From: a virus
Lineage: Duplodnaviria > Heunggongvirae > Uroviricota > Caudoviricetes
Length of the DNA stretch: 6,579 nt
Virus record (IMG/VR): IMGVR_UViG_2778261641_000015
Coordinates: 1-6,579 of that record
Direction: 5' to 3' (one strand)
Part shown: positions 1-6,579 of the stretch, one piece after another
How the letters are laid out: each line of letters starts with the position of its first letter
Numbering within the stretch: the stretch's first letter is position 1
Notes under the pieces: generated by a model
Told to the model about the DNA's origin: nothing
Databases searched by the model: none
What the model saw: the letters and a program-made list of their open reading frames with translations, nothing else
Position numbers and translations under genes: made by a program

Positions 1-898
<898 letters not shown>

Positions 899-1021
899 TT
901 AAAAGACAGGCATACTAATAAACACTGCACTGTGTATTTATTCCAACGAGTGAATACACGGAGCAATGTCGCTCGTAACTAAACAGGAGCCGACTTGTTC
1001 TGATTATTGGAAATCTTCTTT

Positions 1022-1047
1022 GCCCTCCAGTGTGAGGGCGATTTTTT
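1022..1047 (+). terminator. Intrinsic terminator-like hairpin (GCCCTC-cagtgt-GAGGGC) followed by a T-run, upstream of ea10
   Basis: 6-bp GC-rich perfect stem at 1022-1027/1034-1039, then GATTTTTTAT (T-run 1042-1047). Oriented to act on rightward (pL-type) transcription in this window. Confidence 0.6.
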
Positions 1048-1067
1048 ATCTATGAGGATATGAATAG

Positions 1068-1436
1068 GTGTCAAACATCAAAAAATACATCATTGATTAC
1101 GACTGGAAAGCATCAATAGAAATTGAAATCGACCATGACGTAATGACAGAGGAAAAACTTCACCAGATTAATAATTTCTGGTCAGACTCTGAATACCGAC
1201 TCAATAAACACGGCTCTGTATTAAATGCTGTATTAATCATGCTGGCGCAACATGCTCTGCTTATAGCAATTTCAAGCGACTTAAATGCATATGGTGTTGT
1301 GTGTGAGTTCGACTGGAATGATGGAAATGGTCAGGAAGGATGGCCTCCAATGGATGGTAGCGAAGGAATAAGAATTACCGATATCGATACATCAGGAATA
1401 TTTGATTCAGATGATATGGCTATCAAGGCCGCCTGA
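1068..1436 (+). CDS. ea10: Ea10 (lambda early protein, 122 aa, function unknown)
   Basis: Translation MSNIKKYIIDYDWKASIEIEIDHDVMTEEKLHQINNFWSDSEY... matches lambda Ea10 from memory, same length. GTG start with GAGGA about 10 nt upstream. Confidence 0.88.
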   Translation: MSNIKKYIIDYDWKASIEIEIDHDVMTEEKLHQINNFWSDSEYRLNKHGSVLNAVLIMLAQHALLIAISSDLNAYGVVCEFDWNDGNGQEGWPPMDGSEGIRITDIDTSGIFDSDDMAIKAA

Positions 1437-1459
1437 GTGCGGCTTTACCGCATACCAAT

Positions 1460-1482
1460 AACGCTTCACTCGAGGCGTTTTT
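1460..1482 (+). terminator. Hairpin plus U-run in the cIII leader (terminator-like or translational-control structure)
   Basis: AACGCTTC(1460-1467)-actc-GAGGCGTT(1472-1479), 8 bp with one G-U wobble, running into TTTTT (1478-1482), 27 nt before the cIII ATG. The lambda cIII leader is known to form regulatory RNA structures. Confidence 0.4.
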
Positions 1483-1508
1483 CGTTATGTATAAATAAGG
1501 AGCACACC

Positions 1509-1649
1509 ATGCAATATGCCATTGCAGGGTGGCCTGTTGCTGGCTGCCCTTCCGAATCTTTACTTGAACGAATCACCCGTAAATTACGTGACGGATGGAA
1601 ACGCCTTATCGACATACTTAATCAGCCAGGAGTACCCAAAAATGGATAA
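1509..1649 (+). CDS. cIII: CIII (FtsH/HflB protease inhibitor), apparently C-terminally truncated variant, 46 aa
   Basis: [46 protein letters not shown] then TAA at 1647-1649. Matches the first 46 residues of the 54-aa lambda CIII as I recall it. Strong SD AAGGAG 8 nt upstream of the ATG at 1509. The track ORF starting at 1437 is an upstream in-frame extension with no RBS. Confidence 0.85.
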   Translation: MQYAIAGWPVAGCPSESLLERITRKLRDGWKRLIDILNQPGVPKNG

Positions 1650-1785
1650 AAAACTTATGGCTATCCAGACAAAATTCACTATTGCCACTTTTATTGGCGA
1701 TGAAAAGATGTTTCGTGAGGCCGTCGACGCTTATAAAAAATGGATATTAATACTGAAACTGAGATCAAGCAAAAGCATTCACTAA
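1642..1785 (+). CDS. kil: Kil (host cell-division inhibitor, 47 aa)
   Basis: [47 protein letters not shown] matches lambda Kil except residues 3-4 (KK here, QT in my recollection of lambda). Start overlaps the cIII stop; 3' end overlaps the gam start by 46 nt, as in lambda. Confidence 0.85.
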
Positions 1786-2156
1786 CCCCCTTTCCTGTTT
1801 TCCTAATCAGCCCGGCATTTCGCGGGCGATATTTTCACAGCTATTTCAGGAGTTCGGCCATGAACGCTTATTACATTCAGGATCGTCTTGAGGCTCAGAG
1901 CTGGGCGCGTCACTACCAGCAGATAGCCCGTGAAGAGAAAGAGGCAGAACTGGCAGACGACATGGAAAAAGGCCTGCCCCAGCACCTGTTTGAATCGCTA
2001 TGCATCGATCATTTGCAACGCCACGGGGCCAGCAAAAAAGCCATTACCCGTGCGTTTGATGACGATGTTGAGTTTCAGGAGCGCATGGCAGAACACATCC
2101 GGTACATGGTTGAAACCATTGCTCACCATCAGGTTGATATTGATTCAGAGGTATAA
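1740..2156 (+). CDS. gam: Gam (RecBCD inhibitor), 138-aa long form; the short GamS form would start at the internal ATG at 1860
   Basis: [61 protein letters not shown]... is near-identical to lambda Gam from memory. Internal ATG at 1860 is preceded by CAGGAG. Confidence 0.95.
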
Positions 2157-2161
2157 AACGG

Positions 2162-2947
2162 ATGAGTACAGCACTCGCAACGCTGGCAGGGAAGCTGGCT
2201 GAACGTGTCGGCATGGATTCTGTCGACCCACAGGAACTGATCACCACTCTTCGCCAGACGGCATTTAAAGGCGATGCCAGCGATGCGCAGTTCATCGCAT
2301 TGTTGATCGTCGCCAACCAGTACGGCCTTAATCCGTGGACGAAAGAAATTTACGCCTTCCCTGACAAGCAGAACGGCATCGTTCCGGTGGTGGGCGTTGA
2401 TGGCTGGTCCCGTATCATCAATGAAAACCAGCAGTTTGATGGCATGGACTTTGAGCAGGACAATGAATCATGTACATGCCGGATTTACCGCAAGGACCGT
2501 AATCATCCGATCTGCGTTACCGAGTGGATGGATGAATGCCGCCGCGAACCATTCAAAACCCGCGAAGGCAGAGAAATCACCGGACCGTGGCAGTCGCATC
2601 CCAAACGGATGTTACGGCATAAAGCCATGATTCAGTGTGCCCGTCTGGCCTTCGGATTTGCTGGTATCTATGACAAGGATGAAGCCGAGCGCATTGTCGA
2701 AAATACCGCATACACTGCAGAACGTCAGCCGGAACGCGACATCACTCCGGTTAACGATGAAACCATGCAGGAGATTAACACTATGCTGATTGCCCTGGAC
2801 AAAACATGGGATGACGACTTATTGCCGCTCTGTTCCCAGATATTTCGCCGCGACATTCGCGCATCGTCAGAACTGACACAGGCCGAAGCAATGAAAGCTC
2901 TTGGATTCCTGAAACAGAAAGCCTCTGAACAGAAGGTGGCTGCATGA
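2162..2947 (+). CDS. bet: Bet (Red-beta single-strand annealing protein, 261 aa)
   Basis: [66 protein letters not shown]... is near-identical to lambda Bet from memory. Stop overlaps the exo start (ATGA at 2944-2947). Confidence 0.97.
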
Positions 2948-3624
2948 CACCGGACATTATCCTGCAGCGTACCGGGATCGACGTGAGAGCTGTCGAACAG
3001 GGGGATGATGCATGGCACAAATTACGGCTCGGCGTCATCACCGCTTCAGAAGTTCACAACGTGATAGCAAAGCCCCGCTCAGGAAAGAAGTGGCCTGACA
3101 TGAAAATGTCCTACTTCCACACCCTGCTGGCTGAGGTTTGCACCGGTGTGGCTCCGGAAGTTAACGCTAAGGCGCTGGCCTGGGGAAAACAGTACGAGAA
3201 CGACGCCAGAACCCTCTTTGAGTTCACTTCCGGCGTTAATGTTACTGAATCCCCGATCATCTATCGCGACGAAAGTATGCGCACCGCCTGCTCTCCCGAT
3301 GGTTTATGCAGTGACGGCAACGGCCTTGAACTGAAATGCCCGTTTACCTCCCGGGATTTCATGAAGTTCCGGCTCGGTGGTTTCGAGGCCATAAAATCGG
3401 CTTACATGGCCCAGGTGCAGTACAGCATGTGGGTGACGCGAAAAGATGCCTGGTACTTTGCCAACTATGACCCACGAATGAAGCGTGAAGGCCTGCATTA
3501 TGTCGTGGTTGAGCGGGATGAAAATTACATGGCGAGTTTTGACGAGATGGTGCCGGAGTTCATCGAAAAAATGGACGAGGCACTGGCTGAAATTGGTTTT
3601 GTATTTGGGGAGCAATGGCGATGA
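2944..3624 (+). CDS. exo: Lambda exonuclease (Red-alpha, 226 aa)
   Basis: [65 protein letters not shown]... is near-identical to lambda Exo from memory. Confidence 0.97.
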
Positions 3625-3803
3625 CGCATCCTCACGATAATATCCGGGTAGGCGCGATCACTTTCGTCTACTCCATTACAAAGCGAGGCTGGGTATTTCC
3701 CGGCCTTTCTGTTATCAGAAATCCCCTGAAAGCACAGCGGCTGGCTGAGGAGATAAATAATAAACGGGGAGCTGTATGCACAAAGCATCTCCCGTTGAGT
3801 TAA
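3621..3803 (+). CDS. orf60a: Lambda orf60a homologue (60 aa, function unknown)
   Basis: [60 protein letters not shown] matches lambda orf60a from memory. Start chosen at the ATG at 3621, which overlaps the exo stop (ATGA); the track start at 3615 adds two residues. Confidence 0.85.
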
Positions 3804-3967
3804 GAACGAGTATCGAGATGGCACATAGCCTCGCTCAAATTGGAGTCAGGTTTGTGCCAATACCAGTAGAAACAGACGAAGAATTTCATACGTTAGCCGC
3901 ATCCCTTTCACAAAAGCTGGAAATGATGGTGGCGAAAGCAGAAGCAGATGAGAGAGACCAGGTATGA
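3776..3967 (+). CDS. orf63: Lambda orf63 homologue (63 aa, function unknown)
   Basis: [63 protein letters not shown] matches lambda orf63 from memory; overlaps orf60a by 28 nt. Confidence 0.85.
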   Translation: MHKASPVELRTSIEMAHSLAQIGVRFVPIPVETDEEFHTLAASLSQKLEMMVAKAEADERDQV

Positions 3968-4047
3968 CAACCACTGAATGCATTTTTCTGGCAGCGGGCT
4001 TCATATTCTGTGTGCTTATGCTTGCCGACATGGGGCTTGTTCAATGA
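3964..4047 (+). CDS. Candidate 27-aa hydrophobic micro-protein (MTTTECIFLAAGFIFCVLMLADMGLVQ), single predicted transmembrane helix
   Basis: ATG at 3964 overlaps the orf63 stop (ATGA 3964-3967) and its TGA overlaps the ATG of the next ORF (ATGA 4044-4047). Below the length cutoff of the supplied ORF track; translated by hand. Confidence 0.4.
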   Translation: MTTTECIFLAAGFIFCVLMLADMGLVQ

Positions 4048-4259
4048 CACCTCAGCAAGAAAACGCCCTTCGCAGCATTGCCCGTCAGGCTAATTCTGAA
4101 ATCAAAAAAGCCAGACAGCAGTTTCCGGATAAAAACGTCGATGACATTTGCCGTAGCGTACTAAAGAAGCACCGCGAAACGGTAACGCTGATGGGATTCA
4201 CACCGACTCATTTAAGCCTGGCGATCGGCATGTTGAACGGCGTCTTTAAGGAACGGTGA
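4044..4259 (+). CDS. Hypothetical 71-aa basic protein at the lambda orf61 position (MTPQQENALRSIARQANSEIKKARQQFPDKNVDD...)
   Basis: ORF in the track from 3978; start preferred at the ATG at 4044 because of the ATGA coupling to the upstream micro-ORF and because the N-terminal extension looks non-protein-like. I could not confirm from memory that it equals lambda orf61. Confidence 0.55.
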   Translation: MTPQQENALRSIARQANSEIKKARQQFPDKNVDDICRSVLKKHRETVTLMGFTPTHLSLAIGMLNGVFKER

Positions 4260-4280
4260 ACATGAAAAGCAAAATCATCA

Positions 4281-4302
4281 GGGAGCTACAGGCTCCTTTT
4301 TT
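4281..4302 (+). terminator. Intrinsic terminator-like hairpin (GGGAGC-tacag-GCTCC) plus T6
   Basis: 5-6 bp GC-rich stem at 4281-4286/4292-4296 followed directly by TTTTTT (4297-4302), between the 71-aa ORF and orf73. Confidence 0.6.
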
Positions 4303-4357
4303 ATTATTCGCATTCACCCTCAAGCGTATTAACCAACAATTCAGGGATTAATGAAAG

Positions 4358-4579
4358 ATGGCAGACATCATTGATTCAGCATCAGAAATTGAAGAATTAC
4401 AGCGCAACACAGCAATAAAAATGCGCCGCCTGAACCACCAGGCTATATCTGCCACTCATTGTTGTGAGTGTGGCGATCCGATAGATGAACGAAGACGCTT
4501 GGCCGTTCAGGGTTGTCGGACTTGTGCAAGTTGCCAGGAGGATCTGGAACTTATCAGTAAACAGAGAGGTTCGAAGTGA
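4358..4579 (+). CDS. orf73: TraR/DksA-family C4 zinc-finger protein (lambda Orf73-like, 73 aa)
   Basis: CxxC-x17-CxxC motif (CCECGDPIDERRRLAVQGCRTCASC) after an N-terminal helical region, the architecture of TraR/DksA family members. Length and position match lambda orf73. Confidence 0.85.
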   Translation: MADIIDSASEIEELQRNTAIKMRRLNHQAISATHCCECGDPIDERRRLAVQGCRTCASCQEDLELISKQRGSK

Positions 4580-5124
4580 GCGAAATTAACTCTCAGGCAC
4601 TGCGTGAGGCGGCAGTAGCAATTGAAACAGTAGCAACACCTCAAAAATTGCTGGCATTTCGTATGAAAGTCACACCTCAGGTTGTGCTGGCTCTACTGGA
4701 TGAACGAGATGCATTAAATGAACGCCTAGCCGAACTGGAGGCTGATTTAGCAGGGCTGGCCGAAGACCACCAGAAAGCGACTGAGTCAATTAAGCAGGCT
4801 GATGCAGCTGTTAAGTTGGCACACGAGAAGTTTTCGGCGCTGGCGGCGGAGAATGAGCTGGCTCGTAAAGCAGTTCAGGAATTCTGCGATGTTGTTGGCG
4901 ACAGCACCGAGGTTATCTGCGAGGAGATTGGGAGAGATGGTGTTCTGGTTATTTTGGAGGCCATGAAGGCAACAGGAAATATGCCAGCCACCGATGCTTT
5001 CCTGGCTGAAGTACGGGCGCAGGGGGTGGAGATGATGCGCGAACATCCATCAATCAAACTTTGCTCTTTGACGCACATATGTGATGAGTTAGCCGCCCAG
5101 CTTCGCAAAGGAGGCAACCAGTGA
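4576..5124 (+). CDS. ea22: Ea22-like protein (182 aa), lambda-like N-terminus with divergent central and C-terminal parts
   Basis: GTG start overlapping the orf73 stop (GTGA 4576-4579). N-terminus MSEINSQALREAA matches lambda Ea22 as recalled and length is the same; the remainder (LDERDALNERLAELEADLAGLAEDHQ... coiled-coil-like) differs. Confidence 0.8.
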   Translation: MSEINSQALREAAVAIETVATPQKLLAFRMKVTPQVVLALLDERDALNERLAELEADLAGLAEDHQKATESIKQADAAVKLAHEKFSALAAENELARKAVQEFCDVVGDSTEVICEEIGRDGVLVILEAMKATGNMPATDAFLAEVRAQGVEMMREHPSIKLCSLTHICDELAAQLRKGGNQ

Positions 5125-5217
5125 CTGGACATGCAGCAATCCTCGACATGTGCTGTGGCAGTCGCATGTTCTGGTTAGATAAGAATGACGAACGGGCGAG
5201 ATAAGCGATCGGTTAAG

Positions 5218-5226
5218 TGCTATAGT
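5218..5226 (+). promoter_or_regulatory. Weak candidate extended -10 element (TGcTATAGT) upstream of the secreted-protein gene
   Basis: TG at 5218-5219 and TATAGT at 5221-5226, about 29 nt upstream of the ATG at 5255; no convincing -35. Motif match only. Confidence 0.2.
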
Positions 5227-5254
5227 AATGCGCTTTTGTATTTATGGAGTGAAT

Positions 5255-5953
5255 ATGAAAAATATCCTACTGGCATCATTGTTAGTGGCATCGCCGGGTG
5301 CATTTGCAGCCAGCTTTGACTGCCAAAAGGCTTCGACAGCAATCGAACATAAAATCTGCGATAACGAACGTCTGTCAAAATTAGACGAACAGCTTAGCTC
5401 TGCCTATTCTAGTGCCCTCAAAGGAAACCCAGAGAACGCAGACACCCTAAAAATGGTTCAACGTCAGTGGGTAAATATGCGTGGAAAACTCACTGATAAT
5501 AAGGCTCTGGAGCTGGCTTATCTTATCCAAATTAATGGCCTCAAAGGTTTGGGGAGTTCAGTCAGCGTAACAGCGGCCAATGACATACCCACGTCGGCGC
5601 AGAAACATTCTAAAGAGCAGGAAGATACAAGTAAGGCAGAAGCTAAGTCGGTCAAGAACGGCAATAAGCTAACCTTAGAGTCATTCCGAGCTAAATATGT
5701 AGAAGTAGATGGTGAGTATTACAGCACGACATCCATTCCTAGAGGCAGTTCGTTCTTGTTCACTTGCGCTAGTCGTATTGCTGATGACCAAGTGAATATT
5801 TGGAAGAAACAGGCAGCCAAAGAGGGCAAAATCGACCTATTCTTTGAGGTTGAGAATCACTTACACACGGCTATGTTGAACGCCAATTTTCAGAAGTTGA
5901 ATTCAGACCCTGCCAAAAGAGGTATTTGTAATCTGATTAACGCAGTGCCGTAA
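5255..5953 (+). CDS. Secreted (periplasmic) hypothetical protein, 232 aa: Sec signal peptide, DUF1311/LprI-like N-terminal domain, C-terminal region of unknown function
   Basis: ATG at 5255 with GGAG 5 nt upstream (the track start at 5228 lacks an RBS). MKNILLASLLVASPGAFA|AS is a classic signal peptide with an AxA cleavage site. The mature N-terminus FDCQKASTAIEHKICDNERLSKLDEQLSSAYSSAL...QRQWVNMRG resembles the DUF1311 motif from memory. Sits where lambda has ea8.5. Confidence 0.75.
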   Translation: MKNILLASLLVASPGAFAASFDCQKASTAIEHKICDNERLSKLDEQLSSAYSSALKGNPENADTLKMVQRQWVNMRGKLTDNKALELAYLIQINGLKGLGSSVSVTAANDIPTSAQKHSKEQEDTSKAEAKSVKNGNKLTLESFRAKYVEVDGEYYSTTSIPRGSSFLFTCASRIADDQVNIWKKQAAKEGKIDLFFEVENHLHTAMLNANFQKLNSDPAKRGICNLINAVP

Positions 5954-5963
5954 GTAAATTTAG

Positions 5964-5993
5964 GGCCACAGTTGTGGCCTTAAATATTTTTTT
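5964..5993 (+). terminator. Terminator-like hairpin (GGCCAC-agtt-GTGGCC) followed by an AT-rich tract ending in T7
   Basis: Perfect 6-bp stem at 5964-5969/5974-5979, 10 nt after the stop of the secreted-protein gene; the T-run (5987-5993) is 7 nt from the stem, which is not ideal. Confidence 0.45.
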
Positions 5994-6122
5994 CAGCCTT
6001 TTCTTATTTGTAATAAGCAGTACTTGGTAGTGCTTATAAAACAGAATAAAAAATATATGACTTTGGCGATTACCCAGTAAAGATATTCGAAATAAATGTA
6101 AATATCGACAATGAATAACTAT

Positions 6123-6147
6123 CCTCGCACTCGCGGGGATTTCTTTT
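6123..6147 (+). terminator. Terminator-like hairpin (CCTCGC-actc-GCGGGG) followed by a T-rich tract
   Basis: 6-bp stem with one mismatch at 6123-6128/6133-6138, then ATTTCTTTTAT. Confidence 0.4.
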
Positions 6148-6152
6148 ATCTG

Positions 6153-6177
6153 AACTCGCTACGGCGAGTTTTTTTTA
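6153..6177 (+). terminator. Strong intrinsic terminator (AACTCGC-tacg-GCGAGTT, then T8)
   Basis: 7-bp stem at 6153-6159/6164-6170 running into TTTTTTTT (6169-6176), immediately upstream of the RBS of the 55-aa ORF. Confidence 0.7.
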
Positions 6178-6189
6178 TGGAGATGATAA

Positions 6190-6357
6190 ATGCACTTCCG
6201 AGTCACAGGTGAATGGAATGGAGAACCATTCAACAGAGTTATCGAAGCCGAGAACATCAGCGACTGCTATGACCACTGGATGCTGTGGGCGCAGATAGCA
6301 CATGCAGACGTAACCAATATTCGAATTGAAGAACTGAAAGAACACCAAGCCGCCTGA
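6190..6357 (+). CDS. Candidate small protein, 55 aa (MHFRVTGEWNGEPFNRVIEAENISDCYDHWMLWAQIAHADVTNIRIEELKEHQAA)
   Basis: ATG at 6190 with GGAG 8 nt upstream, TGA at 6355-6357. Below the ORF-track cutoff; hand-translated. Bracketed by terminator-like hairpins on both sides. Confidence 0.45.
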   Translation: MHFRVTGEWNGEPFNRVIEAENISDCYDHWMLWAQIAHADVTNIRIEELKEHQAA

Positions 6358-6372
6358 TGGCGGTTTCTTTTT
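6350..6372 (+). terminator. Terminator-like hairpin (CCGCC-tgat-GGCGG) plus T-rich tract, overlapping the stop codon of the 55-aa ORF
   Basis: 5-bp GC stem at 6350-6354/6359-6363 followed by TTTCTTTTT (6364-6372). Confidence 0.55.
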
Positions 6373-6387
6373 GCCTGGAGAATTAAG

Positions 6388-6579
6388 ATGACCGATACTA
6401 GCCTGATTCCTGAGAAAGAAGTGATGAACAAGCTCGGTGTTTCATCACGTCAGACAATCTGGAACTATACCAAACGGCACGGATTTCCGAAGCCAGTCAG
6501 AACCCACCCCAAATCATACCTTCGTGAAGCTGTTGAAGGGTGGATTCTTAACGGTGGCGTTAATCAGAAATGCTCCTGA
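6388..6579 (+). CDS. AlpA-family (Phage_AlpA-like) small helix-turn-helix protein, probable excisionase or integration-module regulator, 63 aa
   Basis: MTDTSLIPEKEVMNKLGVSSRQTIWNYTKRHGFPKPVRTHPKSY...: short HTH protein with the (R/K)xGFPKP(V/I) signature typical of AlpA/Xis-like proteins found next to P4-type integrases. GGAG 6 nt upstream of the ATG. Not similar to lambda Xis as I recall it. Window ends at its stop codon. Confidence 0.75.
   Translation: MTDTSLIPEKEVMNKLGVSSRQTIWNYTKRHGFPKPVRTHPKSYLREAVEGWILNGGVNQKCS

Follow-up and report, generated by a model that had tools for sequence, protein, structure and literature searches.

The DNA analysed here (the window, 6,579 nucleotides (nt) long, positions 1 to 6,579 of IMG/VR virus record IMGVR_UViG_2778261641_000015) covers the leftward early (pL) region of a lambdoid phage and is given in the orientation in which that region is transcribed. 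Between orf63 and a gene related to lambda orf61 it carries a 27-codon open reading frame (ORF), hereafter the micro-ORF, which probably encodes a small inner-membrane protein. Early in lytic growth, transcription from pL covers the exo-xis block, to which these genes belong. Over bases 3700-4400 (701 compared) Escherichia phage ev099 matches the window at 100% identity, and about 180 lambda-like and Shiga toxin (Stx)-converting phages match it at 96-99%. A match to the Rfam family Lambda_thermo (the cIII thermoregulator element, 88.5 bits) at 1496-1554 confirms that the window is pL-operon DNA.

Three reading frames follow one another on the + strand. The first one is orf63 (3776..3967), a member of the family DUF1382, and it is the usual upstream coupling partner of the micro-ORF (3964..4047). 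The third is a gene of 71 amino acids (aa) similar to orf61 (4044..4259), which belongs to phrog_303, a family of unknown function, and is annotated from this ATG in ev099, mEp332 and RefSeq.

The micro-ORF and its junctions

The micro-ORF extends from the ATG at 3964 to the TGA at 4045-4047, and its translation, MTTTECIFLAAGFIFCVLMLADMGLVQ, is exactly the one first given in the initial annotation. The peptide consists of a polar N-terminus (MTTTE), an uninterrupted hydrophobic core of 16 residues (C6-A21) and the tail DMGLVQ, and it contains two acidic residues and no Lys or Arg. Its grand average of hydropathy (GRAVY) is 1.62 and its best 19-residue Kyte-Doolittle window reaches 2.33, the usual cut-off for a membrane-spanning segment being 1.6. 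Among the 59 ORFs of 20-40 aa present in the six frames of the window it ranks first in hydrophobicity, and its score is reached by only 1.6% of the distinct 25-40-aa ORFs of the E. coli lambdoid loci. These values agree with the earlier description of the product as essentially one transmembrane helix. A single inner-membrane helix with a core of 16-21 residues is therefore predicted; a span of 21 residues would take in Asp22, the core itself being 16 residues long. The length of 27 codons is by itself unremarkable, since 31 ORFs of at least 20 aa are listed within 1.3 kb.

Both ends of the micro-ORF overlap its neighbours, as had been noticed at the outset. Its start overlaps the stop of orf63 as ATGA (3964..3967, + strand), and its stop overlaps the start of the 71-aa gene, a coding sequence in ev099 and in RefSeq E. 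coli, as a second ATGA (4044..4047, + strand). The same overlap is found, also as previously described, at the bet/exo (2944-2947) and exo/orf60a (3621-3624) junctions. A purine tract, GAGAGAGA (3950..3957, + strand), constitutes a moderate Shine-Dalgarno (SD)-like site 6 nt before the ATG at 3964, with an anti-SD duplex of -5.6 kcal/mol at spacing 6 in the orf63 context. The micro-ORF thus has no more than 50 codons and a credible start, an ATG placed in ATGA behind an SD-like tract. The SD of the 71-aa gene is weak (-4.7 kcal/mol). In a variant with A>G at 4044, Gln27 and the TGA are kept, the downstream ATG becomes GTG, and the overlap is retained. The micro-ORF and the 71-aa gene both begin with ATGACA.

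Selection on the micro-ORF and its occurrence

A set of 223 related loci, drawn from IMG/VR, GenBank phages and genomes, served to study variation; it includes some contigs twice, and 96 distinct haplotypes are present over 3776-4351. For the ratio of non-synonymous to synonymous polymorphism (pN/pS) each distinct allele was scored once, and binomial p values were calculated. In the micro-ORF frame there are 15 synonymous and 13 non-synonymous events (pN/pS 0.27, p=7e-4), and third codon positions take 16 of the 28. Over the same bases, the frame in which longer forms of Orf61 are read gives 8 and 21 (pN/pS 0.73) and the third sense frame 6 and 23 (pN/pS 1.10), neither being significant. Variants present in at least 5 loci are 7 synonymous to 1 non-synonymous in the micro-ORF frame and 1 to 7 in the other two sense frames. 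For instance, position 3975 is tri-allelic (T/G/A) and always encodes Thr in the micro-ORF frame, while in the orf61 frame it gives a stop, Gly or Arg.

Neighbouring genes give similar ratios, 0.33 for orf60a (26 synonymous, 27 non-synonymous, p=8.6e-5), 0.31 for the 71-aa gene (25 and 27, p=3.1e-5) and 0.27 for orf73 (38 and 36, p=2.7e-8). The non-overlapping part of orf63 (3804-3963) has a pN/pS of 0.84 (10 synonymous, 31 non-synonymous), much above its neighbours, which suggests relaxed or diversifying selection, or a mixture of paralogous alleles.

The allele counts show purifying selection on the sequence of the predicted peptide, in the micro-ORF frame alone among the sense frames. This conservation at the protein level (pN/pS 0.27) has to be read with two caveats, the shallow divergence of the set and the existence of an antisense mirror frame. 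The latter is an ORF of 61 aa on the opposite strand (3846..4031), in register with the micro-ORF at third codon positions. Both the window and lambda have it open, and its pN/pS is 0.36 (p=0.008), so that the conserved frame might belong to it. However, this signal is weaker than that of the sense frame, and a low ratio would be expected as a mirror effect when third positions coincide, which is how we read it. Moreover, a C>T change at 4029 removes its ATG in 9 loci, different sequence stands in for its downstream two thirds where a methyltransferase gene takes the place of orf63, codons 23-27 of the micro-ORF lie outside it, and it opposes pL transcription with no promoter-like site nearby. 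The antisense ORF was rejected on the loss of its ATG, its replacement in the second context and the codons that it leaves uncovered, and is extremely improbable as the source of the signal.

The micro-ORF is intact, with its ATGA start, in 221 of the 223 loci. It is preceded by orf63 in 198 of them. In 23 loci without orf63, homology starts exactly at the ATG of the micro-ORF, and an unrelated gene for a 185-aa N6-adenine methyltransferase ends in the same ATGA; the last codons of this gene form a GGGAGG at the site equivalent to the SD-like tract, with a duplex of -10.3 kcal/mol. The micro-ORF therefore has the arrangement of an ATGA-coupled operon gene, the upstream overlap being present in the 221 loci and the downstream one being kept even as GTG, with the coupling itself a prediction. 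As for the exceptions, a 14-nt deletion in Escherichia sp. E1V33 (locus L009) fuses the ATG of the micro-ORF to the 71-aa frame, so that the micro-ORF is lost, and in L228 homology breaks inside it. One RefSeq copy (H160) is truncated beside an IS3 element. The L009 fusion ORF (1435-1716 of that locus, 93 aa) lies downstream of a gene for a 355-aa DGQHR-motif protein, and orf73 is missing; this locus may be a decaying prophage or island.

In complete E. coli genomes the micro-ORF is found, in prophages, at 4247 places in 3142 of 5426 genomes (58%). The 71-aa gene occupies 4399 places and orf63 3959. Since the counts of the micro-ORF and of the 71-aa gene track each other, the two travel together.

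Other phage lineages carry homologues of the 71-aa gene, and what precedes it varies. In 73 Klebsiella-type loci an ATGA couples the orf61-like gene directly to a long gene before it; these upstream genes vary, and the majority end in the linker GGAGGCAGC followed by ATGA. The same linker precedes some of the micro-ORFs found in Yersinia-phage-type loci. In 23 of 36 loci of the latter type, a micro-ORF of 29-36 aa with a single predicted helix lies directly upstream of the orf61-like gene (602-697 in L109, and just upstream of position 1201 in L237-L272). Three families of mutually unrelated sequence were distinguished, YenA (MKRKISDGAWFWIYLIGYTVAATLYIVSNAG), YenB (..YLDWILLIVGGGVAFWLLWVKEW) and YenC (MNQPKVTEILIGICFALFIICLVVYVVGDAMNGVSM). 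The two families analysed for divergence have a ratio of non-synonymous to synonymous substitution rates (dN/dS) of 0.20 at dS 0.95 (YenB) and 0.27 (YenA), and by these values YenA and YenB are clearly coding. Comparably hydrophobic ORFs represent only 0.4-6.6% of the distinct 25-40-aa ORFs in these locus sets. No significant family was found for the Yersinia-type peptides in Pfam, NCBIfam, PHROGs or PADLOC, and the micro-ORF of Yersinia phage vB_YenM_210.17 is unannotated.

The Yersinia-type micro-ORFs are like the E. coli 27-mer in occupying the same slot before a phrog_303 gene and in encoding one hydrophobic helix, with YenA and YenB under purifying selection. However, they have no recognisable similarity to it, they end 4 nt before a GTG, and YenA and YenB contain basic residues. 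In Vibrio and Erwinia phages no transmembrane micro-ORF was found upstream of the homologue, so the pairing with the orf61-like gene is facultative. Transmembrane micro-proteins would then use the slot repeatedly but not always, the E. coli 27-mer being a fourth, unrelated occupant.

A linker-like motif, GG(A/T)GGC(A/T)GC followed by ATGAC (in which an ...AA-stop overlaps Met-Thr), is repeated at several of these junctions: bet/exo (window 2935-2950), methyltransferase/micro-ORF (L106 1405-1424) and the junctions of many unrelated upstream genes with orf61-like genes in Klebsiella-type phages (L273-L343, about 1185-1204). It may be a shared SD-plus-coupling junction for mosaic recombination.

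The initial annotation had argued from the overlaps that the micro-ORF is translated and does not represent a chance ORF. This claim of a probable translation is supported by the frame-specific purifying selection, by an ATGA that is intact in 221 of 223 loci and in two contexts, by the start of the downstream homologues at the Met encoded at 4044, and by the analogues in the slot. Since the conservation pattern, the coupling in two different upstream contexts and the positional analogues all point in the same direction, the micro-ORF is more than a product of chance.

Coupling at both ends could also mean that translation of the micro-ORF serves only to bring ribosomes from orf63 (or the methyltransferase gene) to the 71-aa gene, its peptide being devoid of function. 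The ATGA at each end and the weak SD of the 71-aa gene would fit such a relay, as would the Klebsiella-type loci, where direct ATGA coupling of the orf61-like gene makes coupling itself the conserved feature, and the absence or loss of the micro-ORF in some lineages. However, a spacer should tolerate amino-acid changes, yet pN/pS is 0.27 and the common variants are 7:1 synonymous. The four unrelated slot peptides are all transmembrane-like, and two analogue families have dN/dS of 0.20-0.27. Furthermore, direct coupling in the Klebsiella-type loci works without any spacer, hence no relay is needed. A pure relay is thus unlikely and, because its sequence is under selection, the 27-aa peptide would be more than a spacer.

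The orf61 annotation and the published lambda mutants

Alignment to NC_001416 places an identical 27-aa peptide in lambda at complement(30925..31008), where it is unannotated. Inside the micro-ORF, lambda and the window differ by two single-nucleotide polymorphisms, neither of which alters the 27-aa peptide; read as orf61, one of them exchanges a stop for Gly and the other Ala for Thr. The initial annotation expected the lambda orf61 frame to start at an ATG at 3948 and found it to be only 9 codons long, which is correct, this frame being closed by a TGA (3975..3977, + strand). The suggestion made there that the interval may be organised differently from lambda does not hold, since the alignment reveals the same organisation, an identical peptide, few polymorphisms and one extra A downstream. 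This A falls in a run inside the 71-aa gene, A6 in the window (4104..4109, + strand) and A7 in lambda, where it frameshifts and truncates the gene. Among the fetched loci A6 is present in 201 of 224 and A7 in 19. RefSeq marks copies of the 71-aa gene as 'frameshifted' in some E. coli prophages.

Sequence of lambda type carrying A7 was also found in assemblies labelled Shewanella, Bradyrhizobium, Pseudomonas, Paenibacillus, Kitasatospora and others (L010-L023), some of the contigs being about 48.4-48.5 kb long; it is most likely contamination with lambda control DNA.

The product called Orf61 has been annotated in three forms. Lambda orf61 (NP_040613, 61 aa; 30839..31024) uses the same DNA, belongs to the same operon, is the gene of the published mutants and has the micro-ORF wholly inside it. 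Stx-phage records carry a form of 93 aa (Orf61, vb_24B_7c) annotated from an ATG at 3978; the micro-ORF overlaps its first 22 codons in a different frame. The 71-aa form, starting at 4044, is the one given in ev099, mEp332 and RefSeq E. coli, where a gap of 76 nt is left empty before it.

The micro-ORF might therefore be a chance ORF within the N-terminal extension of a longer Orf61, either the 93-aa form from the ATG at 3978 or the 61-aa form from that at 3948. Starting from 3978, the frame stays open in the window and most relatives, its annotation reads 'similar to lambda orf61', and L009 possesses a fusion ORF of 93 aa preceded by a strong SD. However, the extension frame has a pN/pS of 0.73, its common variants are 1 synonymous to 7 non-synonymous, and position 3975 gives a stop, Gly or Arg. 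The ATG at 3978 lacks a usable SD (duplex of -3.8 kcal/mol, spacing 13). Homologues of the 71-aa protein from four other phage groups (Klebsiella, Yersinia, Vibrio and Erwinia phages, 35-48% identical) all align from Met1, those of Klebsiella and Yersinia phages being annotated from the Met equivalent to 4044, which is also the RefSeq start. Matches to PHROG 303 begin at profile position 23. Published models are inconsistent between methods for residues 1-23 (PMC8614690), and the L009 fusion arose from a 14-nt deletion that reuses the ATG of the micro-ORF itself. The extension frame lacks selection and an SD and is missing from distant homologues. Since homologues align from Met1 and the PHROG matches start at 23, the 22-residue extension lies outside the family.

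The extension was rejected on its frame-specific pN/pS, its SD and the homologue starts, and this explanation is very improbable. By these comparisons the 71-aa form from 4044 appears to be the true form of lambda 'orf61', and the 61-aa (lambda) and 93-aa (Stx-phage) forms are probably mis-annotated, reading out of frame across the micro-ORF. The lambda 61-aa 'orf61', which corresponds to window 3948-4133 and to 840-1025 of the lambda locus L001, looks like a composite of 32 out-of-frame codons over the micro-ORF, 22 codons of the real gene and a frameshift tail. The micro-ORF is no part of the Orf61-like (phrog_303) protein either, since its frame differs and its stop lies at the point where the conserved protein starts.

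The expectation that the micro-ORF, which fell below the length threshold of the ORF list, would be missed by most annotators largely holds. Its place is blank in lambda, ev099, mEp332 and RefSeq, whereas some GenBank E. coli records and UniRef contain it as 'hypothetical protein'. In all, the 27-aa protein occurs on 981 contigs of the protein collection, with that name in a few GenBank E. coli records. Two members of its 90% cluster (P0006 and P0007, 428 aa each) are an unrelated glycosyltransferase-like protein and were discarded as a clustering artefact. In NZ_CP015240.1 (L232) the locus tags A5956_RS16860 and RS16850 flank the micro-ORF gap and RS16855 is skipped exactly there, which suggests that a gene called in an earlier annotation run was dropped later. 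A full-text search retrieved no paper with the peptide sequence or with the UniRef identifier of the protein, and the supplements of the enterohaemorrhagic E. coli (EHEC) small-gene paper contain no match to the peptide.

Two published lambda 'orf61' mutations can be placed on this map. In plasmid pGAWorf61_mut (Bloch et al. 2014, PMC4195576) the 'orf61 frameshift' consists of the deletion of one C in CTTCATATTCTGTGTG[C]TTATGCTTGCCGACAT. This sequence maps to window 3999-4031, which is lambda 30941-30973 (942..974 of the lambda locus L001), and the deleted base, 4015 (+ strand), opens codon 18 of the micro-ORF, upstream of the ATG of the 71-aa gene. The sole published point mutation of lambda orf61 thus alters the micro-ORF and its stop-start overlap and leaves the conserved 71-aa frame unaltered. 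Compared with the wild-type multicopy exo-xis plasmid, induction by mitomycin C or H2O2 is followed by delayed phage development when pGAWorf61_mut is used (PMC4195576). The deletion in lambda Δorf61 (Licznerska et al., PMC4699033; reused in PMC6213356) removes lambda 30889-30971, and with it micro-ORF codons 13-27 as well as codons 1-13 of the 71-aa gene. Both mapped mutations, the point mutation and the deletion, therefore destroy the 27-aa peptide.

Expression data for lambda 'orf61' also concern the micro-ORF. The reverse primer used for quantitative reverse-transcription PCR lies inside it, and the amplicon includes its 3' end. After infection, orf61 RNA is expressed about as efficiently as that of N (PMC4195576), so this RNA is produced early.

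The exo-xis papers that were consulted describe five proteins in the conserved block, together with two peptides of 7 and 31 aa detected by ribosome profiling, and the 27-aa ORF is not among them. The 31-aa peptide, 'orf2313' (cited in PMC8614690), is like the 27-mer the product of a micro-ORF of the same conserved block, but of a different ORF, 200 nt downstream, and corresponds most likely to window 4256..4351. This ORF, located between the 71-aa gene and orf73, varies in the manner of a coding sequence (pN/pS 0.38, p=0.009) and is annotated in only a few phage records. It contains a terminator-like hairpin with a T-run (4280-4298), which is 't2' of PMC4195576; another terminator-like hairpin, 3685-3707 inside orf60a, is 't1' of the same paper.

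A putative membrane protein of the pL operon

Taken as a whole, the evidence argues for a real small inner-membrane protein gene of the pL early operon that also relays ribosomes to the orf61-like gene, a reading to which we assign a probability of about 0.7. The micro-ORF would be transcribed with orf60a, orf63 and orf61 in the exo-xis operon, whose cotranscription is established for lambda. Ribosomes terminating on orf63, or on the methyltransferase gene that replaces it, would restart at the first ATGA, aided by GAGAGAGA or by the GGGAGG SD. The 27-residue peptide would then be made and inserted as a single inner-membrane helix, and termination at the second ATGA would pass ribosomes on to the weakly SD-equipped 71-aa gene. 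Because the published point mutation and the mapped deletion both destroy the peptide, its most likely role would be that of a small membrane effector or modulator helping to set the timing of lytic development.

Several points weigh against this reading of the micro-ORF as a membrane-protein gene. The published 'orf61' phenotypes could result from polar effects on downstream translation. The account that cites lambda ribosome profiling (PMC8614690) names only the 7-aa and 31-aa peptides as extra products of the block. Diversity is shallow, all copies being at least 90% identical, the selection test rests on 28 events, and the antisense frame with coincident third positions is low as well. Since the micro-ORF is lost in L009 and Klebsiella-type phages have none at all, phages can do without it. 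For a membrane anchor, the lack of any basic residue and the Asp at position 22 are unusual, and searches of Pfam, NCBIfam, PHROGs and PADLOC assign the peptide to no family. Finally, we infer both its translation and its membrane insertion from sequence features.

As a putative small single-pass membrane protein from an ATGA-coupled phage gene, the 27-mer would belong to kinds that are already well known. Small single-pass inner-membrane proteins of E. coli, such as AcrZ, KdpF, MgtS, CydX and YohP, have been identified from their conservation and their translation signals, and they usually act by binding a larger membrane protein. Like the 27-mer, they have at most 50 aa and one hydrophobic helix and are often missed by annotation. 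However, the 27-mer has no family similarity to them, is phage-encoded, is acidic without Lys or Arg, and has ATGA overlaps at both ends of its gene. Among lambda pL products, Kil (47 aa) and CIII (54 aa) target FtsZ and FtsH, respectively, and are not integral membrane peptides. Kil (PMC3961180) and CIII resemble the 27-mer in being small, non-essential, early-expressed and involved in tuning host physiology.

Size and hydrophobicity also bring to mind the type I toxins (Ibs, ShoB, TisB, Hok/Ldr), whose short hydrophobic peptides the 27-mer resembles. A small membrane toxin, type-I-toxin-like or holin-like, that kills the host or aborts infection would be a functional sub-variant not fully exclusive of the membrane-protein reading. 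However, the micro-ORF lacks its own promoter, an antisense RNA and a translation-blocking fold, its peptide has no basic flank, nor any basic residue, and it is embedded by coupling in a co-translated operon. It is also carried in prophages of 58% of complete E. coli genomes, and PADLOC gives no match. No promoter-like site was found at the micro-ORF and no Rfam family in the interval and, there being no stable fold either, membership among the type I toxins was rejected; a toxin in the broader sense is rather improbable.

An RNA element was likewise discarded, since the interval has no Rfam match and the RNA fold over 3940-4070 is no more stable than that of shuffled sequences (z=+1.6). There is no sign of a leader peptide or attenuator, with no stable structure over 3940-4070 and no codon run, the nearest terminator-like hairpins being those at 3685-3707 and 4280-4298.

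A wider proposal, which we consider possible but doubtful, combines the slot with the lambda mutants. According to it, the slot between an SD-ATGA linker (GGAGGCNGC followed by ATGA) and phrog_303 genes would be a docking site for interchangeable transmembrane micro-proteins, of at least 4 unrelated families, in enterobacterial temperate phages, and the 27-aa peptide, not 'Orf61', would be the effector that accounts for the prophage-induction and lytic-timing phenotypes of lambda 'orf61'. The peptide might then act on a host membrane protein or be a partner of the Orf61-like or Orf63 proteins.

Lambda is the reference temperate phage, and its exo-xis block is actively studied as it shifts the lysis-lysogeny balance and the induction of Shiga-toxin prophages. 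If the membrane-protein reading is true, this conserved block would hold a gene beyond the five named proteins and the two ribosome-profiling peptides, and lambda 'orf61' as annotated would be a composite of an out-of-frame reading of the micro-ORF and a frameshift-truncated 71-aa gene. The frameshift and deletion alleles used to study orf61 functions would disrupt the micro-protein, and their phenotypes would need re-attribution. Its presence in 58% of complete E. coli genomes would place the product among the more widespread uncharacterised small membrane proteins of the species, and the recurrent transmembrane micro-ORF slot beside phrog_303 genes would offer a defined place to seek more such genes.

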